From IMG/VR virus record IMGVR_UViG_2565956711_000012: a DNA stretch of 29,461 bases; one strand, written 5' to 3'. The translations under genes and the position numbers were made by a program. Below the pieces are notes generated by a model. That model saw only the letters and a program-made list of their open reading frames with translations. It had not been told where the DNA came from and did not search any database. The DNA comes from a virus. Lineage: Duplodnaviria > Heunggongvirae > Uroviricota > Caudoviricetes. Below, piece by piece: positions 12,011 to 29,461 of this stretch. How positions within the stretch are numbered: the first letter of the stretch is position 1; each line of letters opens with the position of its first letter.

Positions 12011-12039
12011 AATCCGGCATTACGTGATATTTTACGTAA

Positions 12040-12058
12040 TGACGTCATGCTTTGACGT
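12040..12058. repeat. direct repeat TGACGT-N7-TGACGT overlapping the capsid-gene stop codon
   Basis: Plus strand TGACGTcatgcttTGACGT; the first hexamer is part of the palindrome TGACGTCA; flanked by TTACGTAA-like palindromes. Confidence 0.5.
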
Positions 12059-12938
12059 AAGGTGAGACCAGCAGGTCAACATCCTTGTAATAGATGTTTG
12101 AACCACCACCATCAGCCGTAACCGCTTCAATCAGCGCCTTGGCCGCACCACGGTTGTTCTTACCGACGACCAGCAATGTCGGATTCATGCCCAGAGGTTC
12201 GCCGTTAGAGTCCGTGATACCCATCATTGCGGAGACAGCGGCTTCATAGTTCGCTTTGTTCAGTGCTGCTTTTGACCCCACACAGGTCTGCCAGAAACCA
12301 AAGCCAACGTTGCTGCGGCCATCGGTCCCGTAGGCGAATTCGTTCTGAAGGAACACACGCTCACTGGTGAGATCATCAAGGGCGATGAAGTTAAACGGAC
12401 GGCGCTCCTGGTAAATGATGGGCAGCAGCGCATGCGTTGCATCAATCAGGAACCACGGCTCACCCGTATCGGTCGCCGGGTCGCCCACAACGTTCGATTT
12501 GGTGGATGTACCAACAGGGTGATCAGTATCGAAGAAATACTGACCGTCCCAGCACAGCGTATCGAAGCCTTTGCACAGCAACTCAAACGACAGCTTGTCC
12601 GGGAAAATCGTGGTATCGCGGCCAAGCTGCTCAGCAATCACGGAATACTGACCAATCTGATCGTCCTCGATTTTTTCGCGCTTGACCTTGACCGAGTTTT
12701 CCCAGGTCTTGTTGGTAATGACATACCCGGCCTGAGCCAGTTCTTTCAGCTGACGCGCCCCGATCCATTCTTTGATGGTCGGGAAGTCTTCAACCCAGCC
12801 ATAAGTGTTAGACGCGCCGGAACTGGGGATAACCGTGGCGATGGATCGATACTGCGGATTGACCCGACCAACACCTTTGGTAAAGGCGGCGCTCAGTGCG
12901 GTGGTCAGGGCATGCAACACTTCTGCGGATACCTGCAT
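12045..12938 (-). CDS. T: major head (capsid) subunit, Mu T-like
   Basis: 297-aa ORF immediately downstream of the I-like gene; C-terminus SPYVKA-stop verified by hand; size and position match Mu T. Confidence 0.85.
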   Translation of the reverse strand: MQVSAEVLHALTTALSAAFTKGVGRVNPQYRSIATVIPSSGASNTYGWVEDFPTIKEWIGARQLKELAQAGYVITNKTWENSVKVKREKIEDDQIGQYSVIAEQLGRDTTIFPDKLSFELLCKGFDTLCWDGQYFFDTDHPVGTSTKSNVVGDPATDTGEPWFLIDATHALLPIIYQERRPFNFIALDDLTSERVFLQNEFAYGTDGRSNVGFGFWQTCVGSKAALNKANYEAAVSAMMGITDSNGEPLGMNPTLLVVGKNNRGAAKALIEAVTADGGGSNIYYKDVDLLVSPYVKA

Positions 12939-14896: not shown

Positions 14897-16457
14897 CGTT
14901 TACATCTCCCAGCGACCGGGCTTTAAAACAGAGCATCGCCAGCTGCGTCGCAAACTCATCCGCATCAAGTTCTTTCTGAAGCGCCGGCAGACCAGCAAGA
15001 AAGGATTCAAAACTGTCAGAGTTATTTGCCAGCTCAAGCACCGGACTGGTGAACGCATCGCCGGTACGCTGCCAGTCTTTCATGGCGTCATCCACCATCA
15101 TATCAAGGGCGTCAGGCTGGCTGCGGTTAAGTGCAGTCTGCTCACGGTTCATGGCCGGTAGTGGGTTAGCCATTTGCGCCGTTGGCGTCAGAATTTTTGC
15201 GCCTTTCTCCGGTTCTGACAGCCCGAATTTGTCTCGGATCTCTGACATCTGAACTTCCATCCCCCGGTCAATCAGTGGCGACAGTGCATCCACCAGTACC
15301 TTAAGGTCTTCCGGTTTGCTGATGCGCAGAACGACGCGGGGGTAATGCTCCTGTGGCCCGTAATTCATATCCACATAGGGACGGACAAGGAATTCAGACA
15401 GCGTGTTGGATAATTGCCAGGCATCCCATTTGGCGATGTCCATACGCACACCATTGTGGACTTCCGCCTGAGCACGTGAACTGCCGTCATCGGTGGTCAT
15501 GGTCTGCCCCAGTACGGCCTTACTAATCTGCGCGTCACACCATTCGGCCATCTCTTTAAAGAGAGTGCCACCGCTGTTACGGCTCGCCGCTTCCTGCATC
15601 TCCAGTTTCATCGAATCGGGGATTGCGCAGCCGGCATCTGATGCCAGTGATGCAATCGCATCCAGCAATGTCTGGATTTGTTCCGGGCTGGCATTGTTGC
15701 CGTATTTACCCACCACAATCGGGATACCAAATTTTTCAGCAAACGCCCACCAGTCCCGGACGGTGTAGGACTTGAGCATATACATAACGGCCACCAGTCG
15801 CGCCAGACCGTTACGCAAGGGCAAACCGGATTTCAGGCGGGGTTTATGGACGATAAATTTCCCCGGTGACAATGCTTCACCATCAATGGGGTTCCTGTCC
15901 GTCAGTAGTCTGAAATCACGCAGGGTTTCCCGGTCAGGTTTCAGAAAGCGCGGATCAACCCATTCATAATCGCGGGGTTTCCAGAGTGTGGTGCTGGTAT
16001 TCCAGAGGATTTCGCAGACGCCAACCCCTTTACCAAGCCCGTCCAGCAGATCGAACAGCAGTTCAGGAACCTGCGGTTGCGCCATGAGATTACGGATATC
16101 ATCTGCGATTTCCACATCACGAGGGGAATCGCTCCCGGCTTCCACCGAAGGTTCAATCCCGGAAACCGTCAGCTTGCGCGTACGTAAAACGCTGGCGTAG
16201 TGGAGGTCACGCTCCTCCAGTTCTTCCGCCATGATGAAGAAATCACGCGCATGACCATCGGCTGCATTACGTAAGATCCCCGCAAGCCTGCCGGGACTCA
16301 GCGTACTGGCAACGCTGATGCCTACCGAGGGGGAACGTACACTCATTACCGCCGCTGCGGATTGCGTCTGCTTCAGCTCGTCCTTGTTCACGGTGACAAC
16401 TTCCCCCGTGGCAGGACTGAACAGCCGACGAACGGCTCCGGTTAGTTGTTTAAACAT
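14889..16457 (-). CDS. portal protein (Mu gp29-like, DUF935)
   Basis: 522-aa ORF immediately downstream of terminase large subunit (1-bp overlap). Confidence 0.85.
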   Translation of the reverse strand: MFKQLTGAVRRLFSPATGEVVTVNKDELKQTQSAAAVMSVRSPSVGISVASTLSPGRLAGILRNAADGHARDFFIMAEELEERDLHYASVLRTRKLTVSGIEPSVEAGSDSPRDVEIADDIRNLMAQPQVPELLFDLLDGLGKGVGVCEILWNTSTTLWKPRDYEWVDPRFLKPDRETLRDFRLLTDRNPIDGEALSPGKFIVHKPRLKSGLPLRNGLARLVAVMYMLKSYTVRDWWAFAEKFGIPIVVGKYGNNASPEQIQTLLDAIASLASDAGCAIPDSMKLEMQEAASRNSGGTLFKEMAEWCDAQISKAVLGQTMTTDDGSSRAQAEVHNGVRMDIAKWDAWQLSNTLSEFLVRPYVDMNYGPQEHYPRVVLRISKPEDLKVLVDALSPLIDRGMEVQMSEIRDKFGLSEPEKGAKILTPTAQMANPLPAMNREQTALNRSQPDALDMMVDDAMKDWQRTGDAFTSPVLELANNSDSFESFLAGLPALQKELDADEFATQLAMLCFKARSLGDVNDG

Positions 16458-18040
16458 CAGAGTAATCCCCGCTGATTTTTAAGACCCCGTGTGATGCGGA
16501 CCTGACGGTGTTCATTACGCTCATCGGGGCGGGAAGGTTTCTTTAACTTGTGGACTTCATAACGCCGGCAGTCCTCGCGACTGGCGAGGAAACCGAGAAA
16601 AATAGCGATAGCGGAGTCACCGTGACGCTTGCGGCCATCGGTGCCGGTAGTGCGTGCATCATCAATGCCAGGTACGCCGCGATAAAGCTGAATAGCGCCG
16701 AGATCGGTGATCACATCTTCATGCTTTGGCAGTACCAGTTCATTGTCTTCGAATGCCGCACGGAACCGGGGCATGTTTTCCCGGTAGTATTTGACGGAAA
16801 GCTGCACCTGCTCAACTTCATCACCGTATTTTTCCGCCGCCTGTTCTGCCAGATACTGACCGTTACCCCGTGCATCGAGCTTGATGCCGTCGCGGCGGGG
16901 AAGACGATCACAGATATAAAACAGCGCCTGTTCCTGCTGTTTAAATGGCACATTGCTGAGTTCCACCAGGAACGGGACGTTGCGCGTCGTGTCATCGTTG
17001 ACTGTCACCGGCGCAAACACGGTCAGGTCACCGTTACGCGCAAAGTCCTCCCCCAGACAGTGGCGCAGGTTCTGCGGCAGTTTCTCCAGTTCGGGAAGTA
17101 CGACCGTCTCCAGCCATTCCTGCATGTCCACACGGCGCAGCCCGTCCGGCATCGCGTTAAAATCAGCCGTACCGGTGAAGCGCAGGACAACGGTCGGACC
17201 TCTGGCCGCGCGTTCGCGCAGGGAACGTGCGATATAGACGCCACCGCCGTTCTTCGGCTCGCAGTAATACTCCTCGCGGGCATCTTCCTCTGTGGCCGTG
17301 TCGCTCAGCAGGTTAGCCAGCCATTCCGCTTCGCCCTCCACAGACCAGACTTTTTTTGTGACCTGACAGATGCGCTGATACAGCCCCTCAGCAATGGCCG
17401 TTTCAATATCGACGTGATGGACAGAGTAGCGTTTTTTCCCGGCCCGGCTGTCGGTGATGATGGTGTTAAACAGGTTATCAATACCGTTGTGGGTGGAAAT
17501 AAGGCGAACATTATTCCCCCACATTGTCAGCGCCAGCGCCGCCTTGAGTACCGCTGCAAGGTCAGCCTGGAATGCGGCCTCATCAATGATGACGTTACCC
17601 TGCATACCACGCAGGTTCGACGGGTTAGACGACAGTGCTTTGATTTTGTAGCCACTGGCGAACTGGATGACATAGACCAGGATGTCTTTGTCTTCATCCT
17701 TCAGCACTTCTTCACCAATGCCAGACGCGGCGCGGTCATAGGCTTTCGCCCACATGGCACAGGCATCAATAAACTCACGGGCCATGTCTTTCGTCGTACC
17801 GACGTAGAACGTGTCGCACCCGCCGGCCTCCACCGACATTGAGCCATTCAGGGCCGCGTCAGCCGCTTCCGCCCAGGTCAGACCGGTACGACGCGACTTC
17901 TCGGCAATCTTCAGTTGAGAGGAATCAGCAATCCACCGCTTCTGGTAGGGAAGCAGTAGCTGGCTTTTGTCGAACTCACCCGACAGGATAGCCGCAGCGG
18001 ACTGACTGGTGAGTGTTCTGTCCGGCGTCATCGTCGTCAT
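16457..18040 (-). CDS. terminase large subunit (Mu gp28-like)
   Basis: 527-aa ORF between terminase-small-like and portal genes; acidic nuclease-like C-terminal half. Confidence 0.85.
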   Translation of the reverse strand: MTTMTPDRTLTSQSAAAILSGEFDKSQLLLPYQKRWIADSSQLKIAEKSRRTGLTWAEAADAALNGSMSVEAGGCDTFYVGTTKDMAREFIDACAMWAKAYDRAASGIGEEVLKDEDKDILVYVIQFASGYKIKALSSNPSNLRGMQGNVIIDEAAFQADLAAVLKAALALTMWGNNVRLISTHNGIDNLFNTIITDSRAGKKRYSVHHVDIETAIAEGLYQRICQVTKKVWSVEGEAEWLANLLSDTATEEDAREEYYCEPKNGGGVYIARSLRERAARGPTVVLRFTGTADFNAMPDGLRRVDMQEWLETVVLPELEKLPQNLRHCLGEDFARNGDLTVFAPVTVNDDTTRNVPFLVELSNVPFKQQEQALFYICDRLPRRDGIKLDARGNGQYLAEQAAEKYGDEVEQVQLSVKYYRENMPRFRAAFEDNELVLPKHEDVITDLGAIQLYRGVPGIDDARTTGTDGRKRHGDSAIAIFLGFLASREDCRRYEVHKLKKPSRPDERNEHRQVRITRGLKNQRGLL

Positions 18041-18615
18041 TCTGCAATCCCCAGAATCTGGCGTTTGATATCAGCCGCTGTCTCAGCAGACAGCCCGGCA
18101 GAACGGGTGATGGTTTCTGCGGCCGCAGCGGCTTTTTTCGCAAACTCCTGCTGGATCTCTTTCTCGCGTTTGTGGCTTGCCATCGCTGCGGCTTCCAGTC
18201 GCTGGGCGACAAGTGCAAGCTGACCCAGCGCTTTTGGCTCAACGCTCTTACCGCTGTCAGCCATGTCCATTGAGGTTTCAAAGGCCAGTGTTTTGACAAA
18301 CTCCAGCAGTAACTTCCCGACATCTGACGTCGGCGCAGAGCCAAGTTTTGAGGCCCATATTTCAGCCATCTCGCGTGAAGCGCGAATCTTTGACCCCATC
18401 GTTTCCATGCGGCTTGCGTAGCGGTTCAGACCAGTACGACTGATTTGCATGTCCTCCGGGAGGTTATATTCGTTGATCAGCTCGTTAATAGCTTCGCGGA
18501 TTTCTTCCTGGGTATGTCGTTTATCGCGCAGCATCTGATGCAGTTGCTCCCGGACCGCATCCGGGAGCAAATCAATCTTTGAAGGTCGTCCGCGCGTCTG
18601 GCGTTCACTTGCCAT
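18037..18615 (-). CDS. terminase small subunit candidate (Mu gp27-like, DUF3486-like)
   Basis: 192-aa ORF; N-terminal basic region (RGRPSKIDLLPDAVREQL), helical C-terminus; 4-bp overlap with terminase large subunit. Confidence 0.6.
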   Translation of the reverse strand: MASERQTRGRPSKIDLLPDAVREQLHQMLRDKRHTQEEIREAINELINEYNLPEDMQISRTGLNRYASRMETMGSKIRASREMAEIWASKLGSAPTSDVGKLLLEFVKTLAFETSMDMADSGKSVEPKALGQLALVAQRLEAAAMASHKREKEIQQEFAKKAAAAAETITRSAGLSAETAADIKRQILGIAE

Positions 18616-18904
18616 TCTCCCTCCTCATACGCTCAAGGAAGTCACGTTCAACGCTGGATTTGTCTTTCAGCAGCAACTTCCAGACGCGTTTATATTCCGG
18701 GTTGCTGTTGAGGAATGTGTTCAGATACGAATCAGCGGATTCGGAGTTGTATTTTTTACCCGTCGATTTTTCAAACTGCGGCGCAATGGCTCTGACTTCA
18801 ATTTCCGCACAGACGAGAATGGCGGCCATTTTCCGGATAATGTCGCGCTGGCTGTTGCTCAGTGGCTTAAGGGCTTTAGTCATGGCTGATGTTCTCCAGT
18901 TCAA
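18605..18904 (-). CDS. hypothetical protein (late operon); true start may be the internal ATG giving MTKALKPL
   Basis: 99-aa ORF, overlaps the terminase-small start by 11 bp; no recognisable motif. Confidence 0.4.
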   Translation of the reverse strand: MNWRTSAMTKALKPLSNSQRDIIRKMAAILVCAEIEVRAIAPQFEKSTGKKYNSESADSYLNTFLNSNPEYKRVWKLLLKDKSSVERDFLERMRRENGK

Positions 18905-19256
18905 AAATACGCTCTGTCACATCGTTAATCGCATCCGTAAAACCAAATGCGCTGCTCCACTCCGGGGGCGCACCGGTTACAGCCTCATACATGCTGTCCA
19001 GTGCGGCGATGACCTGATCGCGCTCTCCGATAAGCTGGGTTTCAGAGCGATCCAGCCGGGCAATACCTTCCAGTGCTTTTTCATTTGCACTGATAAGGGA
19101 TTCAATGATCACAGCGGCCTGAAAAAGCGCATTTGCTGACATGCAGATTTCCCCAGACTCCCGACGTTCTGCCAGACCTGACAGGCGGCGCAGCTGTTCC
19201 GCCTGCTGGCGGCAGGTCATTAACATTTGAAGTATTCTGGCCCGTTCCATCGTCAC
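18876..19256 (-). CDS. hypothetical protein (late operon)
   Basis: 126-aa ORF with 4-bp overlap to the upstream gene; predicted helical. Confidence 0.4.
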   Translation of the reverse strand: MTMERARILQMLMTCRQQAEQLRRLSGLAERRESGEICMSANALFQAAVIIESLISANEKALEGIARLDRSETQLIGERDQVIAALDSMYEAVTGAPPEWSSAFGFTDAINDVTERIFELENISHD

Positions 19257-19546
19257 TCCCGCGCACGTGGTTTTTTGACGCCGGGGACCGTCGCCAGCCC
19301 GAAGGCCACATCTTCACCGCGTCCTGTGATGCCGGCGACGTAACACCCGGAGACATCTGACAGGGTGACGAGTCCCTGTTCACGTAGCCACGCAAGGAGG
19401 GTGCGGACGGTGTCACGGGAAACCCGATGGCCGTAAGTCTGAAGGCAGGTCTGTAGAATGGATTCGTTTGCACTGTCTCCGCACTCCACCAGTGAGCGCA
19501 GAATGACCAGTCGCTGGTCGCTGTTGAGGATTTCTTGCATGCTCAT
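19253..19546 (-). CDS. small winged-helix-like DNA-binding protein candidate
   Basis: 97-aa ORF; pattern QRLVILRSLVECGDSANESIL...VSRDTVRTLLAWLREQGLV resembles winged-helix regulators. Confidence 0.4.
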   Translation of the reverse strand: MSMQEILNSDQRLVILRSLVECGDSANESILQTCLQTYGHRVSRDTVRTLLAWLREQGLVTLSDVSGCYVAGITGRGEDVAFGLATVPGVKKPRARE

Positions 19547-19552
19547 AGCCTC

Positions 19553-19858
19553 TTAATTTTTTTCCTTCAGTTCGTTTTCCAGCAACAGATCGCTGATACG
19601 TGTGGCCTGCCGGAGCATTCCGGAGAACTCCCGTATTTCGCCGCGCAGGTTGCTCATATCCAGTTGCAACTGGTGGAGTTCCTGCCGTGACGGCATCCCG
19701 TCGATGGCCTTTTCAAGTGCACTCATCCGGCTGTTAACTTTCTCCATCTCTTCCCGGCGGGCATAGGTTTTCACCAGCAGCAGGTGGATAATATTGATAC
19801 CGGACATCAGTCCGGCCCAGATGACAGCCCAGTTACTTCTTACGGTTTCCCATTCCAT
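19553..19858 (-). CDS. membrane-anchored coiled-coil protein (Mu gp25-like / DUF2730-like; lysis-associated)
   Basis: 101-aa ORF; N-terminal hydrophobic segment WAVIWAGLMSGINIIHLLLV followed by a heptad-rich coiled coil. Confidence 0.5.
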   Translation of the reverse strand: MEWETVRSNWAVIWAGLMSGINIIHLLLVKTYARREEMEKVNSRMSALEKAIDGMPSRQELHQLQLDMSNLRGEIREFSGMLRQATRISDLLLENELKEKN

Positions 19859-20065
19859 TTATGCCGTCTCCCTGAGTGTCTGGCAGTCAATGCAGGTCAC
19901 GGCATCCGGCATGGCCGCCAGTCGTTTAGGGTCAATTTCGTCACCACAGTCGTTGCAGTGACCTGGAGTATCAGGAGATTCTTTAACCCTGTTTAACAGG
20001 GCATTTAATGCCCGTTCACGGTCTGCCATCTCAAGGCCGCTGGCCTTGTCCAGTTCATCCGTCAT
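19859..20065 (-). CDS. TraR/DksA-family C4 zinc-finger protein
   Basis: 68-aa ORF with C-x2-C ... C-x2-C (CNDCGDEIDPKRLAAMPDAVTCIDCQ), the TraR/DksA signature. Confidence 0.75.
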   Translation of the reverse strand: MTDELDKASGLEMADRERALNALLNRVKESPDTPGHCNDCGDEIDPKRLAAMPDAVTCIDCQTLRETA

Positions 20066-20670
20066 TTACCCGCCGCCATCGTTTTGTGTTTGCTGGATTT
20101 GCTGTACCGGGCGAACCCGTCAAGGGTGCGAAAACCGAGATACCCGAGCGCCGGTGTCGCCAGCATGAGTGCGATATCCCAGTCCGGTGATGGCATGGAG
20201 AAGGCATGACCAAAAGCACCGGATACCGCGCCAGCCTGCTGACCCACTGACATCAGCATCACATACGCAATGCTGCTGTAGAGCGACAGCCTCGCCATCA
20301 GCGGCCTGGTCTGACGGACATATTCATCCGTGGCGTTGTCCCCGTTACGGATGGTTTCCTGCTGTTCATGGTGGGCAGCCTGACGGTCAGCCAGTACGGC
20401 TTTGTCCCGCTCAAGCTGGAATTGCTCAATCTGGACTTTTAGGGACTGGAGCTGGACGAACTGTTCTGGCGGCAGCGCCGCCAGTTTCTGCTCAAGCACC
20501 CGCTGCTGGTCCTGCGGGTTGATGACGCTGTTGACGTTCTCAACGATCCCCGCCACAGAATCTGCCGTTCTGGCGGTGTCGCCACCGAACCAGCCTCCCA
20601 CGGTACGCAGTAATGACGGTCCGGCCTTCATCAGAACGGAGGCAATGGTGGTGAGGGTTACTGGATCCAT
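20062..20670 (-). CDS. putative holin-like membrane protein
   Basis: 202-aa ORF; soluble N-terminal region and C-terminal hydrophobic segments (YSSIAYVMLMSV; IALMLATPALGYLGF); lies in the lysis block. Confidence 0.4.
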   Translation of the reverse strand: MDPVTLTTIASVLMKAGPSLLRTVGGWFGGDTARTADSVAGIVENVNSVINPQDQQRVLEQKLAALPPEQFVQLQSLKVQIEQFQLERDKAVLADRQAAHHEQQETIRNGDNATDEYVRQTRPLMARLSLYSSIAYVMLMSVGQQAGAVSGAFGHAFSMPSPDWDIALMLATPALGYLGFRTLDGFARYSKSSKHKTMAAGK

Positions 20671-21065
20671 ACAAGCAGCCCCTTACGTGCAACCCACTGA
20701 CAGAACAGAAATCCTGTGGCTGCGCCGAGTGGTTCAAGGACAAGCAGGTACAGCGGGCTGGCATAAAGTGGACTCAGGCAGATAAGAACGAACCCAACTC
20801 CCCAGACAACCCACGACCAGAAACATGCATGCCGGCTGATATGCATTTCAGGTTTAAGAAGCCTGTAAGGCAGATTGCCAAGAAAGATGCTGAACCCGAC
20901 CAGGACCACACCGGACAACGCCAGCCACCAGACCATAAATGCCTGGCGGCCTGAGAAACTACAGATGAACAGCGACAGGCCGACGAGAATGACAATGCTC
21001 CATCCGGAGCGCAAAACCTGTACCAGTGCCAGCTTTAACCAGTCACAGCTAAACGATTTAAACAT
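20658..21065 (-). CDS. polytopic inner-membrane protein (lysis block; holin/antiholin candidate)
   Basis: Start chosen at internal ATG (MFKSFSCDWLK...) which overlaps the upstream stop as ATGTTTAA; about four hydrophobic helices; the longer ORF-track version (to 21236) overlaps the upstream gene out of frame. Confidence 0.45.
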   Translation of the reverse strand: MFKSFSCDWLKLALVQVLRSGWSIVILVGLSLFICSFSGRQAFMVWWLALSGVVLVGFSIFLGNLPYRLLKPEMHISRHACFWSWVVWGVGFVLICLSPLYASPLYLLVLEPLGAATGFLFCQWVARKGLLVWIQ

Positions 21066-21276
21066 TGTGTTTTTCCTTGTATCGCTGGCATTGCCAGACG
21101 ATGTCTCTGATATCGACGGATGACCAGCCGCGCATGTAGTAACTGGCGTGTGTACCGTCATGACCTGCATAACTTGTCGGAACGGGGACGGGGCCACCTG
21201 CCATTCGGTGAAGAACTTCCTGCCGCAGCCGGTCACGTCGTCCCTGTTTCAGCGAAGCGTCCCATCCCTTGCCCAT
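21058..21276 (-). CDS. small hypothetical protein translationally coupled to the endolysin
   Basis: 72-aa ORF whose ATG lies 1 nt after the endolysin stop; GC-rich; no recognisable motif. Confidence 0.35.
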   Translation of the reverse strand: MGKGWDASLKQGRRDRLRQEVLHRMAGGPVPVPTSYAGHDGTHASYYMRGWSSVDIRDIVWQCQRYKEKHNV

Positions 21277-21277
21277 A

Positions 21278-21868
21278 TCAGCTCCGGGCTACCGAATAGC
21301 GGACACCGGAAATCTCACGACAGGCGTCAGCGAGGTTGTCCAGTCGGTTAAACCAGCCGTTGAGGAACTTGCCCTGTGAAGGATTTGATTTGATGATGTC
21401 GGCGTAATAGCGGGAACGACGCAGAAATAAACGGTTCAGCAGCCAGTCAGGGTCAGCACCTTCAACGGCTGCGCGGGTGTTTTTACCGGCGATACCATCA
21501 ACACTTTTGCCGGTGAAACCCGCAGCTTCCTGAAGCAACTGGACAGCCTTTTTGACGCCATGCTGGACGGCAGAGTCAAAGGCAAACAGGGCTATATCAT
21601 CCGGCCAAAACTGGCAATACGCGGGATACCAGTAGTCACGGAAGTAAATCTGTCCGGCCTGTTCAACCGTTAAATCACGAATACGCGTATCAGGCTTGCC
21701 ATCGCCATTAACGTCGGTCATGCCATCGGCAACACCGTCGCGTTTATCTGATATACCGAAGTTGGTTTCACCGCCACGGTCAGTGGGGTCATTGACATAT
21801 CCGCGTTCTGCGCTGAGCACGAAAGCAAGAGCATTGCGAAATGCGGGAGAATCGGGGGTGTTGTTCAT
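21278..21868 (-). CDS. endolysin, GH108-type N-acetylmuramidase with C-terminal peptidoglycan-binding region
   Basis: 196-aa ORF; N-terminal ERGYVNDPTDRGGETNFGIS matches the GH108 catalytic motif as I recall it; no signal peptide or SAR segment; AGGTG about 7 nt upstream of ATG. Confidence 0.75.
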   Translation of the reverse strand: MNNTPDSPAFRNALAFVLSAERGYVNDPTDRGGETNFGISDKRDGVADGMTDVNGDGKPDTRIRDLTVEQAGQIYFRDYWYPAYCQFWPDDIALFAFDSAVQHGVKKAVQLLQEAAGFTGKSVDGIAGKNTRAAVEGADPDWLLNRLFLRRSRYYADIIKSNPSQGKFLNGWFNRLDNLADACREISGVRYSVARS

Positions 21869-21919
21869 AAAACGGCACCTTTGGAAGTGGGTTAGTTTTC
21901 CCTTCCATCATGTGCCGGA

Positions 21920-21946
21920 CGAAAAAAAAGCCGGATTAACCGGCTT
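21920..21946 (-). terminator. intrinsic terminator ending the early (mor-moron) transcript
   Basis: Minus-strand RNA: AGCCGG-UUAAU-CCGGCU stem-loop followed by 8-9 U; located 30-50 nt after the moron stop. Confidence 0.65.
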
Positions 21947-21948
21947 CA
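21933..21948 (-). promoter_or_regulatory. 16-mer TGAAGCCGGTTAATCC (copy 1, about 64 nt upstream of the endolysin ATG)
   Basis: Identical 16-mer occurs again at 13959-13974, about 60 nt upstream of the I ATG; candidate late-activator site. Confidence 0.45.
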
Positions 21949-21978
21949 TTCAATGGATATAACTAGCGAATTCACTCA

Positions 21979-22488
21979 CTATGCTTTTCGTAAATCGCAG
22001 GAGTAAGTAACTGACTCCATAACTTTTCGAATAGTGGCTCGTAATTCCATTCCAGATGTAAAACCTGATGCTGAATAAGAGTCGTCTTCTCTTCTATTTG
22101 CCGTCGCTTTTGTAAAAATCTCAGCAACTTGATTGATTGAGTTTTCTGAGTCTTTCTTTCCCGTCACCCCCTCTACGAGTTTTACACATTGATTAACAGC
22201 AGCCAGTGATTCACCGTCAATATCTTTACCACTTGAAAACACCATTGCTGTAACTGCATCTGTACCTAATGCCCAAACGGTACTTACAGTGGAATCTTCA
22301 GTTGTTGCTGTATAAACCTGAACACCATCAACTATGGCTCCTTTTTTCCATTCTGTTTTTTTCAGGACACCCATTTTATCAAATTGAGAAATAAGCTTTT
22401 CATTACCTGTTAGTTCATCTTTATCGAAAAAATAGTGATACCCCCCAACTAAAATAACGGCCAGTATTAATGCATCAGTAAATTTCAT
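21979..22488 (-). CDS. moron: membrane-anchored or secreted protein of unknown function
   Basis: 169-aa ORF; N-terminal hydrophobic stretch (FTDALILAVILVGGYHYFF); clearly AT-rich compared with flanking DNA; GGAG about 7 nt upstream of ATG, inside the end of mor; followed by an intrinsic terminator. Confidence 0.6.
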   Translation of the reverse strand: MKFTDALILAVILVGGYHYFFDKDELTGNEKLISQFDKMGVLKKTEWKKGAIVDGVQVYTATTEDSTVSTVWALGTDAVTAMVFSSGKDIDGESLAAVNQCVKLVEGVTGKKDSENSINQVAEIFTKATANRREDDSYSASGFTSGMELRATIRKVMESVTYSCDLRKA

Positions 22489-22491
22489 ATG

Positions 22492-22902
22492 TTACTCCCT
22501 GCCAAATAAATCCAGTTGATGCTTGCGGTGCTCTAGTTTACGCATGCGTCTGATGGCTTTATACACCGTTTTATAGGTAACACGGTAACGCTCAACCAAC
22601 TCTGTGATGTTTCTGCCATTGAAATCACGCCAGATTTTCATATCACGAATCAATGACTCAAGAGTCTGGCCGCGTGGGAAATAAATCTGCATACCGCCAA
22701 TCTGACAGCTAATCGCGTAAACCAGCTCCAGAGAGATACGTGGGTCAACGCCATGCTTTGTCAGTTCGCCACGCAGCAGCGTATTCAGTTCTGTCAGCAG
22801 TGCAGGGAAACGCACTGTTTCCGCCGAACTGTCATCGTCCAGGTGCTCCAGAATGCTGTCATCCTGGATATCACCAAACAGATCATTCTGCTTTTCGCTC
22901 AT
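22492..22902 (-). CDS. mor: middle-operon regulator Mor (Mor/C family transcription activator)
   Basis: 136-aa ORF; DLFGD near the N-terminus, FPALLTELNTLLRGEL, IRDMKIWRDFNGRN and C-terminal HTH YKTVYKAIRRMRK match Mor as I recall it; sits right after the gemA-like gene as in Mu. Confidence 0.8.
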   Translation of the reverse strand: MSEKQNDLFGDIQDDSILEHLDDDSSAETVRFPALLTELNTLLRGELTKHGVDPRISLELVYAISCQIGGMQIYFPRGQTLESLIRDMKIWRDFNGRNITELVERYRVTYKTVYKAIRRMRKLEHRKHQLDLFGRE

Positions 22903-23426: not shown

Positions 23427-24114
23427 CGTTACTTCCCTCCGTCTGGCGGTCAATGCGCTCAATTTCTGCAATCAAAAGCGCACATGCTTTCACTAAATTT
23501 CGACGATAGTCTGATGGTTTGAAACTGTCATCATGCCAGTCAGCAGGCCAGTATTCTTCAGCCGCCAAAGGCTCTATGTAACTGATAGCCGCTGCGGCCA
23601 GCTCACCTTCAATATATGTGTCGTCCTGCTGTTTGGTGTATCCCTTAACCGATGTTTGCCGCTGGCGCTCGGCCAGAACATCAGATGTTGCTGGTGACAG
23701 TGAAAGCGATGGCGGTGCGGCTCCAATAGCTTTGCCCAGATCGTTGTTTTGCTTTTCCAGACATTCGATACGGTCTGCCTGCTGATTGATGTGATCATCC
23801 TGAGCGGTGTTAGTGCGTTCCTGTTCAGCTATGCGTTTTTGGGCCTTGACCAGTTCATCCGCCAGTGTCCATTCTGATTTTGACAGGACGTCTATTTCAT
23901 CCAGCAACAATTCCACGACTTCAAGAGTGAAACTGCGCTGGGTCTCATTGATAGTTTTAAGACGATTAATACTGGTATCGGGGCCAAATGGCGGCATTGC
24001 TTTACGTTTGCAGATATCGTCACGTATCTGCTGGATATTGATAATCGTATGCCTAGTCATTCGCTTAAACTCCATATTTAGTTGCCTGCGGGTGCACGAA
24101 GCCCCGGCAGGCAT
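23404..24114 (-). CDS. hypothetical early protein with central coiled coil (start uncertain; internal ATGs possible)
   Basis: 236-aa ORF between gam and the gemA-like gene; no recognisable motif. Confidence 0.4.
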   Translation of the reverse strand: MPAGASCTRRQLNMEFKRMTRHTIINIQQIRDDICKRKAMPPFGPDTSINRLKTINETQRSFTLEVVELLLDEIDVLSKSEWTLADELVKAQKRIAEQERTNTAQDDHINQQADRIECLEKQNNDLGKAIGAAPPSLSLSPATSDVLAERQRQTSVKGYTKQQDDTYIEGELAAAAISYIEPLAAEEYWPADWHDDSFKPSDYRRNLVKACALLIAEIERIDRQTEGSNDEPRIPD

Positions 24115-24149
24115 GCCGTATTAAAATTCTGAGAATCAAAGAAAGTTAA

Positions 24150-24677
24150 TTAATCAGTTACAGTTTGTTCAAATGGGATTATTTCAAAATCCTCAACATC
24201 TGATTTAATGGATATTCCTGCAATTCCCTTAACTTCATTCGGTGATGCAAGAATTGCCTCTTTGTTTATTTCCTCTTTATTGCGAAGAAATTTACCCAGA
24301 CTAAATTTTTTGAGTAACGCAATAACATCTTCAACTTTGCGAATAGTGACGCTGGGTGGTCGTTTACGCCAGCGAACCTCACCCGTTGTCAGGTTAGCAG
24401 TCTTGGTCTTACCGTCTTTGGTCAGTTCTGCACGGTTAGCTTCACACCATGTCTGAACGCCAGCCTGCAAACGTCCAAGCTCTTTTTTAAGCGCTTCAAT
24501 GCCGGGCGCAACATCATTTGTCAGGGCCGCTATTTTGTCATTCAGTTCCGTTTCACGGCGCAGAATGACACGGGTAATATCGCCAATCTTGCGGATGTCG
24601 CTGATTACGTCATCGCGGCATTGAGGAACGGCGACAGCAGCGGCTGATTTTGCGCGGGGCTTTTTGGGTGCTTTCAT
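24150..24677 (-). CDS. gam: host-nuclease inhibitor Gam (Ku-like DNA end-binding protein)
   Basis: Start at internal ATG (MKAPKKPRAKSAAAVAVPQCRDDVISDIRKIGDI...; cat at 24675-24677). Motifs KSAAA, RKIGD, TWCEANRAELT, VKTANLTTGEVRWR, IIPFEQ agree with Mu Gam as I recall it. Confidence 0.75.
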   Translation of the reverse strand: MKAPKKPRAKSAAAVAVPQCRDDVISDIRKIGDITRVILRRETELNDKIAALTNDVAPGIEALKKELGRLQAGVQTWCEANRAELTKDGKTKTANLTTGEVRWRKRPPSVTIRKVEDVIALLKKFSLGKFLRNKEEINKEAILASPNEVKGIAGISIKSDVEDFEIIPFEQTVTD

Positions 24678-24684
24678 ATAAACC

Positions 24685-24936
24685 TCAGTGTTTAATAATT
24701 TTACGGTTATCCAGATCAACTTTCTGTTTTGCAAATTCAGTGACCTGCTGGATAGCCATTGGAAAAATAGCTGACAGTCCTTCCGCAACCAGATACGAAA
24801 ATGAACCATCATCATTGGCGTTGTTAAGGTGAAAACTGATAGCGAGCTTTCCTGAGTTCTCACCGGTTTTAACCATTTCCCCGTTTTTAATTACCGCATC
24901 ATCCTCGAGAATAATGGTGATTACCTGTTTAGCCAT
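24685..24936 (-). CDS. small hypothetical early protein (AT-rich gene)
   Basis: 83-aa ORF immediately upstream of gam; lower GC than neighbours; no recognisable motif. Confidence 0.45.
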   Translation of the reverse strand: MAKQVITIILEDDAVIKNGEMVKTGENSGKLAISFHLNNANDDGSFSYLVAEGLSAIFPMAIQQVTEFAKQKVDLDNRKIIKH

Positions 24937-24948
24937 CTCACACCTCCA

Positions 24949-25239
24949 TTAATTACCTTTATAAATAATGTTAAATACCTGACTGCGAGACATTTCCATT
25001 TTTTCGGCGATAACCGATATGGTCAGTCCCTCCCTGTAAAGTTCACGACACAAATATGCGTCGTCTTCATTTCCCGCTCTGATGCGTAGCGAAAGGCCCT
25101 GCCTAATGGCGCAATTCTGCACTGACTGTTTAGAGCGCCCCAGTTGCAGTGCCAGACCGCTTACACTTACCTTTCCCGCGTTCTGTTCAAGAATGCGGAG
25201 TTCTTCACGTGACCATGCTCTCCCCGTACTCCAGCCCAT
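24949..25239 (-). CDS. small HTH DNA-binding protein (GcrA-like N-terminal motif)
   Basis: Start set at ATG giving MGWSTGRAWSREELRILEQ..., preceded by GGAGG 7 nt upstream; the ORF-track start at 25263 is a TTG. WSREEL...GLALQLGRSKQSVQNCAIRQGL resembles GcrA-type HTH; second HTH-like segment LTISVIAEKMEMSRSQVFNIIY. Confidence 0.45.
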   Translation of the reverse strand: MGWSTGRAWSREELRILEQNAGKVSVSGLALQLGRSKQSVQNCAIRQGLSLRIRAGNEDDAYLCRELYREGLTISVIAEKMEMSRSQVFNIIYKGN

Positions 25240-26520: not shown

Positions 26521-28505
26521 TATTTCTGCGACTGTTTCGCTTTATTAACGAACGTCTGAAAAATCACATCATTCTCGGTTTGCGTGTCCTGCATTTCCTC
26601 CACGCGTCTGACGGTATTACCCATATTGAATACGCGCTCAACAACATGACGTTCTGGCAACTCCGTATGTTCTGTCTTCGGTAGCAGGTCGTTAACTTCA
26701 ATCGCTGTCATGCGGTTTAGTGCCTTCGCTGCTTTCTTCGTGCTGCGCATCATTTCACGACGGGCGCGGTTGTGTTCCCGACCAGCCTCGGTATCACCAA
26801 ACGCCACTGCGGCGCGACACTCCGCCATACAGAGGAAGCGGCCATCAAGGTCGTAACAGGCCACTTCACTGTGAAGGTTGCGCGGATCAAAACGGACTGT
26901 AATTTTGCGTGAGCGATGGCTGACAAGTTGCTCACTCCAGTAGGTGTTCTTGCGGCCAAACAGGGTGCCGCCGCTTTCCATCGTGAATTCTCCGGTTGGT
27001 TTCACGCGAACCGACTCTGCCGGCAGCATGAACTGGCGGATTTGTTCTTCAGTTAAACGGGTGATCACAGCCTGGCTGTAGCTTTGTTCGAAAGCCTGAT
27101 CAAAGGACAATTCCCCCCGGCACATTTCCGTTTTACGCTGGGTCTTCCTGTTAAACATGGCGACACCTTCACTGATAATTTCCATAAAGGTCTCAACATC
27201 AACGGCGCGGCTGCCGTAGTTCTCCGGTTTTGAACTGACGTTTTCACCGGCAAATGCACCAGCCAGTGCCGGGTGTTTATCTATGTATTCACCCAGACCA
27301 CCCACACCAAAGGCACGTTCTACGGGTTTAGCCTGGCCCCAGCCTTTACCACCGATAACGCCAGTCCAGTGCAGCTTGATACCCAGCAGAGGGATGATCC
27401 CCATCGGGTCATCTTCACGGACTTTGAACCGATAGCGGTTAGGAACGCCACCAGACAACCATTTGTTCGCCGCTGCACGGGTGTTGTCTATCGTGATGTG
27501 TTGTGGTTTCCCGTAGGTTTTCAGTGTATCCATGAGTGACAGGCGGATACTGTCGCTGTTTTCTGATACATCAGCCCGCCAGCCGACAATTTTGCGGCTG
27601 TGGACGTCCTGCCAGAACCATGTTTTAGGGCGGATGATTTCACCGTTAAACCAGCGGACAAACACGTTGTGCTGATAACCGTCACCGTTAATCCATTCCA
27701 TCGCATGCAACTGCGCGACGGTGCGCTGTTGAGATGGATGCATCTGCGCTAGGGCGTTTTCACCTTCACGGGTGGCAACGACAATACGCGGATCAACTTC
27801 ACGTTCCAGCTTACGACGCAGGGTACGTTCAGCCGGTATGGTCCAGCCATGTGTTTCTGCGGCGATTTCCAGCCGTTCATAGCATTTGGAGAAAAACGGT
27901 GCTTCGTTGCGCAGGTAATCGCCCAGGAAGAATTGCCAGGCATCATCAGAAATTTCAGCCGAACGTCCCGTAACGCGTTTTTCACGAACCCGGCGATCGA
28001 GCAGTACCGGTCCCCAGAGATCAGGGCTGAAGTCCTTCACTTTGTAGTACAGATTGCGCAGCGTTCCTTCACTGATTTGAAGTTGCTTGGCAGCAAGGGT
28101 AATAGCTTTGCGGTTGCCAACACCTGATGCCATCAGCTCAGCCACCAGCGCGGCAGCTTTCGTGCGACGCTCTGCATGCAGTCGCTGTTCGCCTGTTGCT
28201 TTCTCCCAGGCTGACCAGAGACGCTGACGATCAAGGTCGTCAGCAGCCACACGTTCAGGCTCTTGCGGCAAAGTAATGAGTCCGGATGAGGTTTCAATCA
28301 AACCACGAGTTGCCAGCAATTCAGCCCGAACTTCTGGTGGCAATACTGATATGTGGTATTCAAATGCTTTGGTGCCGGCACGTTTGCGGCGTAGCTCACT
28401 GCGACCGCAAACCAGATCCTCAAGTTTTTTCCGTGCATTAGACTCAGCCTGTGGGAAACCACAGACGCCAACGCATTCTTTCACTGATACCCAAAACTCC
28501 ATCAT
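26520..28505 (-). CDS. A: DDE transposase MuA
   Basis: 661-aa ORF; N-terminal winged-helix domain paralogous to repressor c; long stretches (HAMEWINGDGYQHNVFVRWFNGEIIRPKTWFWQDV; GKGWGQAKPVERAFGVGGL) match MuA as I recall it; 4-bp overlap with ner. Confidence 0.9.
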   Translation of the reverse strand: MMEFWVSVKECVGVCGFPQAESNARKKLEDLVCGRSELRRKRAGTKAFEYHISVLPPEVRAELLATRGLIETSSGLITLPQEPERVAADDLDRQRLWSAWEKATGEQRLHAERRTKAAALVAELMASGVGNRKAITLAAKQLQISEGTLRNLYYKVKDFSPDLWGPVLLDRRVREKRVTGRSAEISDDAWQFFLGDYLRNEAPFFSKCYERLEIAAETHGWTIPAERTLRRKLEREVDPRIVVATREGENALAQMHPSQQRTVAQLHAMEWINGDGYQHNVFVRWFNGEIIRPKTWFWQDVHSRKIVGWRADVSENSDSIRLSLMDTLKTYGKPQHITIDNTRAAANKWLSGGVPNRYRFKVREDDPMGIIPLLGIKLHWTGVIGGKGWGQAKPVERAFGVGGLGEYIDKHPALAGAFAGENVSSKPENYGSRAVDVETFMEIISEGVAMFNRKTQRKTEMCRGELSFDQAFEQSYSQAVITRLTEEQIRQFMLPAESVRVKPTGEFTMESGGTLFGRKNTYWSEQLVSHRSRKITVRFDPRNLHSEVACYDLDGRFLCMAECRAAVAFGDTEAGREHNRARREMMRSTKKAAKALNRMTAIEVNDLLPKTEHTELPERHVVERVFNMGNTVRRVEEMQDTQTENDVIFQTFVNKAKQSQK

Positions 28506-28738
28506 GCAACCTCTTTAACAGTCAGATTCTGATAACGCGAAGGCCATATCTCTGATGGCTCCATGTTGAGAAAGTCAGCGATAATTTTCTCCCCTTTGGG
28601 CCAGTGGTGACGGAATACGTTACGTAATGTTGATTCCGCTAGCCCATGACAACGGGATAACTGACTGGTCGTCATTCCGCGTTTTCTAATCGCTGCTTTG
28701 ATGTCTTCAGGGTGCCAGTCTTGGCTTTTGGTCATCAT
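28502..28738 (-). CDS. ner: Ner DNA-binding early regulator
   Basis: 78-aa ORF; DWHPEDIKAAIRKRGMTTSQLSR...HWPKGEKIIADFLNMEPSEIWPSRY matches the Ner family; AAGGA 9 nt upstream of ATG. Confidence 0.8.
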   Translation of the reverse strand: MMTKSQDWHPEDIKAAIRKRGMTTSQLSRCHGLAESTLRNVFRHHWPKGEKIIADFLNMEPSEIWPSRYQNLTVKEVA

Positions 28739-28969
28739 TCTGCGATCCTTAAATATTTACTCGTTGCGGTGAACTAAACTGCTCACCTTTACGTGTAAAA
28801 ATATAGCACACAAAAAATCGAATTCAATCTTTTTGTCAGTCTTTTGTCGGTTTAATCAAATCTAAATAAATCGAATTTAAGTCTTTGATTTTTGTGAAAG
28901 CATGTTTTTACACCATAAAAAATCGAATCGAATTTTTTGTGAGCCAGAAAAAATCGGAAACAGGAGGTA
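28739..28969. promoter_or_regulatory. early operator / divergent promoter region between ner and c (Mu O1-O3 and enhancer equivalent)
   Basis: 231-bp AT-rich non-coding region with two repeat families: AAAAATCGAAT (about 28812, 28866, 28918 and a degenerate copy near 28950) and CTTTTTGT(C/G) (about 28829, 28840, 28888, 28933). Confidence 0.6.
28798..28829 (-). promoter_or_regulatory. candidate sigma-70 early promoter (Pe) driving ner-A-B
   Basis: On the minus strand: TTGAAT, 16-nt spacer, TATATT, placed about 60 nt upstream of the ner ATG. Confidence 0.4.
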
Positions 28970-29461
28970 ATGATGAATGAGCAAACTTGGTTTACGGCTC
29001 AAGAGTGTGCGGGGATGCCCGGATTCCCAAGTGGAGTATCCAATGTACGTAAGCAGTTAGAAAAACTCGCAGAAGGGTTGGACGGAGTGCGGCGGAAACG
29101 AGGAGGGACTAAAGCCACGGAATACCATATATCGATATTGCCTGCACGGACCCAAAATTATCTTGGGTATAGCAACAAAGGACAGCCATCTATGGGAGTT
29201 GAGGATTTCAAGACAAAAAGTGGCTTAGCAAATGATGAGAAGCAAGCACTCTGGATGATGATTTATCAGGGGATGACTGAAGCCCAACGTGAAGCTGTCA
29301 TGGAGATATTTATCACTGGTGGCTTAAAGATGCTTATGCCTGCGGTGCTTGAGTTATCTGATTCAAATCCGGTCCGACAGAAAGAGATTTTCGGACAATG
29401 TGATTCCATTGAAAAGGATAGCCCAGCGTCGAACGTAAGCACGCAAAACAAGGCTGGCTGA
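28970..29461 (+). CDS. c: repressor c (Mu Repc-like)
   Basis: 163-aa ORF divergent from ner; strong AGGAGG SD 5 nt upstream; N-terminal 60 aa are clearly paralogous to the MuA N-terminus (WxxxxECxGxPGFPxxxSNxRKxLExLxxGxxxxRRKRxGTKAxEYHISxLP). Confidence 0.7.
   Translation: MMNEQTWFTAQECAGMPGFPSGVSNVRKQLEKLAEGLDGVRRKRGGTKATEYHISILPARTQNYLGYSNKGQPSMGVEDFKTKSGLANDEKQALWMMIYQGMTEAQREAVMEIFITGGLKMLMPAVLELSDSNPVRQKEIFGQCDSIEKDSPASNVSTQNKAG

Follow-up and report, generated by a model that had tools for sequence, protein, structure and literature searches.

The gp25–gp27 interval of a Mu-like E. coli prophage: an ortholog of Mu gp26 and two small genes predicted to be exchangeable

The locus and its reading frames

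The window, that is, the whole stretch of 29,461 nucleotides analysed here, is a Mu-like transposable prophage of E. coli. It matches the prophage integrated in narX of E. coli ECONIH5 at 99.9% identity over the 2.1 kb tested. A megablast search with the region yielded five E. coli genomes (96.5–99.9% identity) and no match among deposited phages. The genes considered here are all encoded by the minus strand; in the order of transcription they are:

22492–22902, minus strand: Mor-family activator gene, the first in transcription order
21979–22488, minus strand: low-GC ORF of 169 aa, after the Mor-family gene
21278–21868, minus strand: GH108 endolysin, after the low-GC ORF
between the endolysin and the TraR/DksA gene, minus strand: three small/membrane ORFs
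19859–20065, minus strand: TraR/DksA zinc-finger protein, preceding the DUF2730 gene
19553–19858, minus strand: DUF2730 protein, counterpart of Mu gp25 (releasin); Pfam PF10805, E = 2e-30
19253–19546, minus strand: ORF A, 97 aa, ATG start; Mu gp26 ortholog by sequence comparison, core gene of the lysis/head late block
18876–19250, minus strand: ORF B, 124 aa from ATG 19250; putative acidic accessory protein, predicted to be helical; phrog_16295
18605–18883, minus strand: ORF C, 92 aa from ATG 18883; putative basic accessory protein, modelled as a helical hairpin
18037–18615, minus strand: small terminase of the Mu gp27 type (DUF3486); Pfam PF11985 (Phage_Mu_Gp27), E = 2e-56; phrog_426
16457–18040, minus strand: large terminase of the Mu gp28 type, annotated as terminase large subunit; 47% identity to Mup28

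The flanks of the three small ORFs had been described as gp25-like and terminase-small-like, and the matches to DUF2730/gp25 and to Phage_Mu_Gp27 (DUF3486) confirm both assignments. Mu gp25 has been shown to be a "releasin" (PMC9239132). The only Mor/C-family gene of the window, at 22492–22902, encodes a protein with 64% identity to Mor and 37.5% identity to C. The 169-aa low-GC gene following it looks like a classical moron.

The longest ORFs at the positions of B and C have 126 aa (GTG, 18876–19256) and 99 aa (TTG, 18605–18904), respectively. For ORF B the start codon suggested as most likely by the sequence is ATG 19250, yielding 124 aa. It is preferred because it has GGGAG 5 nt upstream, is situated 2 nt past the stop codon of ORF A and agrees with most database calls, which are of 124 aa; the PGAP call is 116 aa. 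For ORF C, ATG 18883 is chosen, since all full-length homologs have 88–104 aa, nearly all of them 90–93 aa, and PGAP uses the same start. The PGAP start of ORF A is the second ATG, yielding 95 aa. At the remaining two junctions the genes overlap, by 8 nt where B ends and C begins and by 11 nt where C ends and gp27 begins. Neither a sigma-70-like promoter in 17900–22600, nor a minus-strand terminator-like hairpin within 18600–19550, nor a match to an Rfam family in 17900–20200 was found.

The pairwise dN/dS ratios, calculated against four diverged relatives, are 0.02–0.18 for A, 0.07–0.14 for B and 0.08–0.15 for C, resembling the values of gp27 and TerL; judged by these comparisons, all three ORFs are under purifying selection. 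Each matches a PHROG family (A, phrog_436, E = 6e-38; B, phrog_16295, E = 1e-65; C, phrog_8988, E = 2.3e-46), and homologs of each are present in many prophages. These matches, the prophage homologs and the low dN/dS identify A, B and C as real protein genes and not chance ORFs. Thus the three coupled small ORFs noticed in the sequence-only reading stand, with their abutting or overlapping starts and stops. The base composition of B (GC 53%, GC3 54%) and C (GC 48%, GC3 61%) is inside the range of the neighbouring genes.

ORF A and the gp26 family

Sequence comparison identifies ORF A as the ortholog of Mu gp26 (Mup26). It aligns with Mup26 (12014–12304) at 58.5% identity (tblastn, E = 6e-29), and its score with NCBIfam NF050184 (the VpaChn25_0724 family) is 121.6 bits, the cut-off being 65 (E = 1.2e-35). 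The gp26 family comprises 1,114 representatives (50% clustering, E ≤ 1e-3). All three ORFs had been considered extra, making the interval richer than that of Mu. This holds for B and C, whereas the 97-aa ORF is gp26, found in the same interval in Mu. As one of the "extra" genes is the conserved gp26, what truly distinguishes the interval from that of Mu is an insertion of two cargo genes, which corrects the logic of the annotation. Homology to a conserved Mu protein, which the earlier reading had set against its own proposal, was found for A only; B and C are homologs neither of structural proteins nor of terminases.

The AlphaFold2 model of ORF A, built from an alignment of 100 sequences, has pLDDT 96.2 and pTM 0.88. 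Its topology is H1, beta, H2, H3, beta-hairpin, H4, that is, a single winged-helix domain of the size of the family, about 95–100 aa. The top Foldseek matches of the model in the PDB are all wHTH DNA binders (probability 1.0, TM about 0.6), among them the centromere-binding AspA of pNOB8, F93 of STIV and SSV1, HlyU, MarR, PadR and TubR. HlyU is also matched by the gp26 family profile (E = 4.7e-4), and Fur N-domains are matched more weakly. In GenBank AF083977, Mu gp26 is labelled "winged HTH domain-containing protein". The proposal that the 97-aa protein has a winged helix is thus well supported by the model, the Foldseek matches and the profile match to HlyU. Sequence searches of the PDB with A, B and C produced nothing meaningful. 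A similarity between ORF A and designed armadillo proteins was rejected, as its score is summed over repeats and the per-domain E-value is about 200.

Two natural proteins, P0155 and P0161, are tandem gp26-gp26 fusions, which at most suggests that gp26 functions as a dimer. The structural neighbours of gp26 are dimeric. From these fusions and neighbours, we infer that ORF A, given its modelled fold, would bind DNA, probably as a dimer. Another two proteins were considered as functional clues and set aside as apparent artefacts of assembly or gene calling: P0105, in which six gp26 repeats are joined to part of a glycosyltransferase, and P0219. The pI of gp26 is near neutral, 6.6; this is atypical and counts against avid DNA binding. 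A literature search retrieved no function for gp26 and no mention of it.

Using a 10-sequence gp26 alignment as the query, we surveyed 160 gp26 loci, 80 from species-level genomes and 80 from viral contigs. A gp27 homolog is situated within 460 bp after gp26 in all loci but one (159/160), the order being gp26, gp27, gp28. The order gp25-gp26-gp27-gp28 is also seen in Mu, Vibrio martha, Pseudoalteromonas HS6, Pseudomonas Ps59, Microcystis Mwe-Yong1 and BcepMu. The gp26 protein of BcepMu is missed by tblastn; it scores 39.8 bits with the family profile over the full length and has the C-terminal PG(V/I)xRP motif.

The strict gp26-gp27-gp28 synteny across distant Mu-like phages is the sole ground for a tentative suggestion that gp26 may be a DNA-binding accessory in the recognition of packaging DNA, together with gp27 and gp28. 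ORF A would then be a small winged-helix protein aiding gp27 in the DNA-recognition step of packaging, and not an activator of late transcription. The packaging specificity factor suggested in the sequence-only reading is plausible on this ground, but such a role, if real, would belong to the gp26 family at large and not to this particular prophage. None of the terminase small-subunit families in Pfam, PHROGs and NCBIfam matches A, B or C, while gp27 matches strongly. The classical amber-mutant screens of Mu are not known to have revealed an essential gene in the lys–D interval. Hence gp26 may be dispensable under laboratory conditions, and the case for a central role in packaging is the weaker for it. 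With a linkage to the terminase genes that extends from Mu of E. coli as far as BcepMu and the Microcystis phage, the winged-helix protein gp26 is an inexpensive candidate, open to test, for DNA recognition in Mu packaging, a step that is poorly defined.

ORFs B and C at the gp26–gp27 junction

The content of the gp26–gp27 junction varies among the 160 loci: it is empty in 75, contains C only in 64, both B and C, as in the window, in 13, B only in two, and belongs to neither of these types in five. A partial C duplicate (52 aa, the N-terminal half of C) is present in 8 of the 64 C-only loci. Four of the five remaining loci contain unrelated small ORFs (Aeromonas, Endozoicomonas and two Vibrio), and the fifth has a frameshift in gp27 and no insert. 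A separate look-up added B-only loci of Klebsiella and C-only loci of E. coli and Edwardsiella. The junction of Klebsiella phage Kp4866-3 also has C only: its small ORF, in the same position between gp26 and gp27, is 47.6% identical to C.

The clearest pair is formed by two loci, L046 with C and L149 with B, whose gp27 proteins are 99.5% identical. Sequence identity in the flanks is 96–97%; it extends exactly to the gp26 stop and resumes at the gp27 start, and the cassettes between these points are non-homologous. As read from the alignment, this is a precise swap of B and C. In a further close relative, L137, having neither gene, the first codons of C (MEKSKPLS) are retained after the gp26 stop, and this remnant indicates that C was lost there by deletion. 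Since close relatives carry neither gene, one or the other, comparison of the loci identifies B and C as independent exchangeable cargo, neither an obligate pair nor core packaging or structural genes. For the same reason both are likely to be dispensable for virion assembly.

ORF B encodes an acidic protein (pI 4.6), predicted to be small and helical from its sequence and by analogy with Ea22. Its family is small, 39 clusters restricted to the Enterobacteriaceae, with the motifs LDRSETQLIxERD and PEW invariant or nearly so; the match to phrog_16295 covers profile positions 1–114 of 114. ORF B is similar to Ead of Salmonella phage MG40 and to the Ea22-like proteins of E. coli phage ZX5 and of PhiR57_1 (44–56% identity in tblastn and BLASTP; BLASTP E = 2e-19), sharing with these Ead/Ea22-like proteins of lambdoid and P22-like phages the pattern LxxSE(T/E)QLIxERD ... 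PEWS. The similarity is confined to residues 62–122 of B, aligned by hhalign with the Ead/Ea22-associated module at a probability of 99.3% (61 columns, 54% identity). In the Ead/Ea22-like proteins this module directly follows the Ead_Ea22 domain of Pfam (PF13935) on its C-terminal side. The PF13935 HMM, with a membership threshold of 27 bits, matches the MG40, ZX5, PhiR57_1 and lambda Ea22 proteins; ORF B has no Pfam match at E ≤ 0.1, and 17 members of its family have none at E ≤ 1. Lambda Ea22 lacks the module and does not match ORF B.

As PF13935 is not matched and the module is absent from lambda Ea22, sequence evidence places ORF B outside the Ea22 family, with a subset of whose members it appears to share a shuffled module. 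Unlike Ea22, it has neither the N-terminal region nor the C-terminal domain and is half the size. The genomic context differs too: the Ea22-like genes adjoin exo/bet or erf/abc, in the early exo-xis/ea region, whereas B belongs to the late operon of a transposable phage. Lambda Ea22 is reported to be pro-lysogenic (PMC10834534, PMC7093339), and Ea22 is an early, tetrameric protein (PMC10834534). A transmembrane segment in ORF B, considered at residues 35–53 (Kyte-Doolittle mean 1.69), was rejected, as this region is polar and amphipathic in the homologs.

ORF C encodes a basic protein (pI 9.8), modelled as a helical hairpin with pLDDT 94. It covers positions 1–91 of 92 in the phrog_8988 profile, and no structural relative of ORF C or of phrog_8988 was found. 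Neither C nor B has matches in NCBIfam, PADLOC or Pfam. About half of the sampled gp26 loci have C; it is absent from Mu and the Vibrio, Pasteurellaceae and Pseudomonas relatives. In every enterobacterial locus it directly precedes gp27, and the two genes overlap. In Pseudoalteromonas HS6 the homolog, gp37, is part of the lysis cassette, flanked by the endolysin gene and a gene annotated as holin, at a distance of four genes from gp27. There is neither a transmembrane segment nor a signal sequence in ORF C, the maximum 19-residue Kyte-Doolittle mean being 1.39 and GRAVY −0.72.

Alternative readings and comparison with known systems

We consider it probable that the interval consists of one core gene, gp26, and two exchangeable cargo genes, read within the late lysis-head block; the evolutionary and structural part of this explanation is held with high confidence. 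The gp26–gp27 junction would be a recurrent insertion slot, filled here by B and C. These would be independent, soluble, all-helical small proteins, expressed via translational coupling and having no promoter of their own. As for their function, the chances are about even that they are late-expressed cytoplasmic protein binders with an accessory role. In the late phase of infection they would bind a protein of the host or the phage and modulate some process.

The sequence-only reading had proposed another role for the 97-aa protein, that of a missing late regulator; in its full form this explanation takes all three ORFs for additions with respect to Mu and the 97-aa protein for a phage-specific late regulator replacing the missing C activator. 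Its premise is true, as the window indeed has one Mor/C-family gene, nearer to Mor, and the modelled fold of ORF A is that of a DNA-binding protein. However, the gene is orthologous to gp26 of Mu, a phage that possesses Mor as well as C, and the same gp26 arrangement is seen in HS6 and martha, phages with a single Mor/C gene. Moreover, ORF A is downstream of the endolysin, within the late block, and hence cannot switch this block on, nor does it match the Pfam Mor family (PF08765). The proposal is not supported, and we regard it as very unlikely. Even less probable is a two-gene system made up of B and C, such as a toxin-antitoxin, abortive infection or other defence pair. The two genes are adjacent and overlapping, their products are oppositely charged (pI 4.6 and 9.8), and within the window's own clade they always occur together. 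On the other hand, close relatives have one gene without the other (C without B in 64 loci, B without C in at least four), and there is no PADLOC match at E ≤ 1. Further, unlike prophage defence genes, which the lysogen normally expresses, B and C are part of a late lytic operon and lack their own promoter.

For C, and perhaps B, one may consider a lineage-specific role with the gp27/gp28 terminase, as an accessory subunit or as a modulator, for instance a cofactor of pac recognition or assembly. The invariable position of the enterobacterial C, directly upstream of gp27 and overlapping it, the basic character of the protein, the purifying selection on it and its presence in about half of the sampled gp26 loci are all consistent with such a role. 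Still, it is unlikely, since the unrelated B replaces C next to a gp27 that is 99.5% identical, C is deleted in L137, the Mu, Vibrio, Pasteurellaceae and Pseudomonas relatives do without it, and in HS6 the homolog is four genes away from gp27. The location of that homolog, between the endolysin and the holin-annotated gene, and the fact that C shares its late block with the lysis genes of the window would fit a protein that controls the timing of lysis or otherwise assists it. Yet C has neither a transmembrane segment nor a signal sequence, and in enterobacterial phages it follows the releasin and gp26 and adjoins the terminase; hence the lysis role is highly improbable, on a par with the defence pair.

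A bolder version of the cargo explanation would make the junction a slot for late counter-defence or host-takeover proteins, with C, B or both representing a new class of inhibitors and gp26 being the pac-recognition partner of the Mu terminase. C or B might then protect the terminase or portal against detection by host sensors, or adjust packaging of the Mu type. Taken as a whole, this version seems rather unlikely, somewhat less so than the terminase modulator. The junction is of interest as a cassette-swap site of small function-unassigned proteins; sites of this kind often harbour genes for anti-defence or host modulation.

The feature as such is ordinary phage mosaicism in a Mu-like prophage and will not surprise a phage specialist: one of the ORFs is already known in kind, being gp26, and the other two are members of existing function-unassigned families. 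ORF A resembles Mu gp26 in length, in the position between the DUF2730 and DUF3486 genes, in the winged-helix fold and in the conserved C-terminal tail G-x3-VPGV-x-RP; it differs in being separated from gp27 by the two inserted genes, and otherwise in nothing of note. Phage "morons" and hot spots of accessory genes are a general concept in phage genomics. Like these, B and C are small non-core genes at a fixed junction of conserved genes, exchanged among close relatives. A classical moron, however, has its own promoter and terminator and a deviant base composition, neither of which is seen for B and C. Given their neighbour-like GC and GC3 and the lack of own signals, B and C are better described as embedded cargo than as classical morons.

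Gene turnover at the gp26–gp27 junction

Evidence of turnover between gp26 and gp27, the small terminase gene, comes from two prophages, one of which (L046, 3791-4072) carries C, the basic helical-hairpin ORF, whereas the other (L149, 3791-4170) carries B, the acidic ORF. The cassettes are exchanged exactly, from the gp26 stop to the gp27 start, while the gp27 proteins are 99.5% identical and the cassette flanks 96–97% identical. A close relative, L137, has neither B nor C, and retains the N-terminus of C, MEKSKPLS, directly after the gp26 stop (3786-3830); this remnant is a deletion scar. In L185, C is followed by an ORF (4086-4244) similar to the N-terminal helix of C. The same additional ORF, of 52–56 aa, is seen in L186, L188-190 and L194-196, and is a partial tandem duplication of C.

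Two long ORFs lie on the opposite strand in this region:

18579-19139, plus strand: antisense ORF of 186 aa, overlapping B and C
16550-17842, plus strand: antisense ORF of 430 aa, overlapping the large terminase gene (TerL)

Both are shadow ORFs, since conservation and purifying selection in the B/C and TerL regions fall on the minus-strand frames.

P0155 and P0161 are natural proteins formed by two gp26 copies in tandem. The metagenomic protein P0105 (722 aa) combines six near-identical gp26 repeats with a fragment of a glycosyltransferase, and this fusion is probably a misassembly.

The Mor/C-family gene and a possible second variable slot

22492-22902, minus strand: the sole Mor/C-family gene of the window
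21979-22488, minus strand: 169-aa ORF, downstream of the Mor-like gene and upstream of the endolysin gene

The Mor/C-family protein is 64% identical to Mu Mor and 37.5% identical to the Mu late activator C, and, as it is the only such gene, the window has no separate ortholog of Mu C.

The 169-aa ORF has a GC content of 37.8% (GC3 25%), compared to 52% in the window. Its product has a hydrophobic N-terminus, and the gene is followed by a terminator-like hairpin (21947-21927). In the ECONIH4 relative its place is taken by a different gene, of 107 aa. The 169-aa ORF looks like a true moron, occupying a second variable slot of the prophage. Other GC dips, at 6001-7000 (42.7%), 24001-25000 (42.7%) and 28001-29000 (46.3%), may correspond to other cargo or early-region genes.

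Neighbours of B-like and C-like genes in other phages

19859-20065, minus strand: TraR/DksA zinc-finger gene, two genes upstream of B
L034 (Pseudoalteromonas phage HS6), 4001-4282: gp37, a C homolog in the lysis cassette

In the lambdoid phage PhiR57_1 (L039, 1860-2842), a TraR/YbiI gene is situated directly upstream of the Ea22 gene bearing the B-like module, a segment homologous to the C-terminal half of B. The presence of a TraR-type gene upstream of this module in both the window and PhiR57_1 may be a coincidence. The C homolog of HS6 does not adjoin the terminase; it is flanked by the endolysin gene on one side and by a gene annotated as holin on the other.
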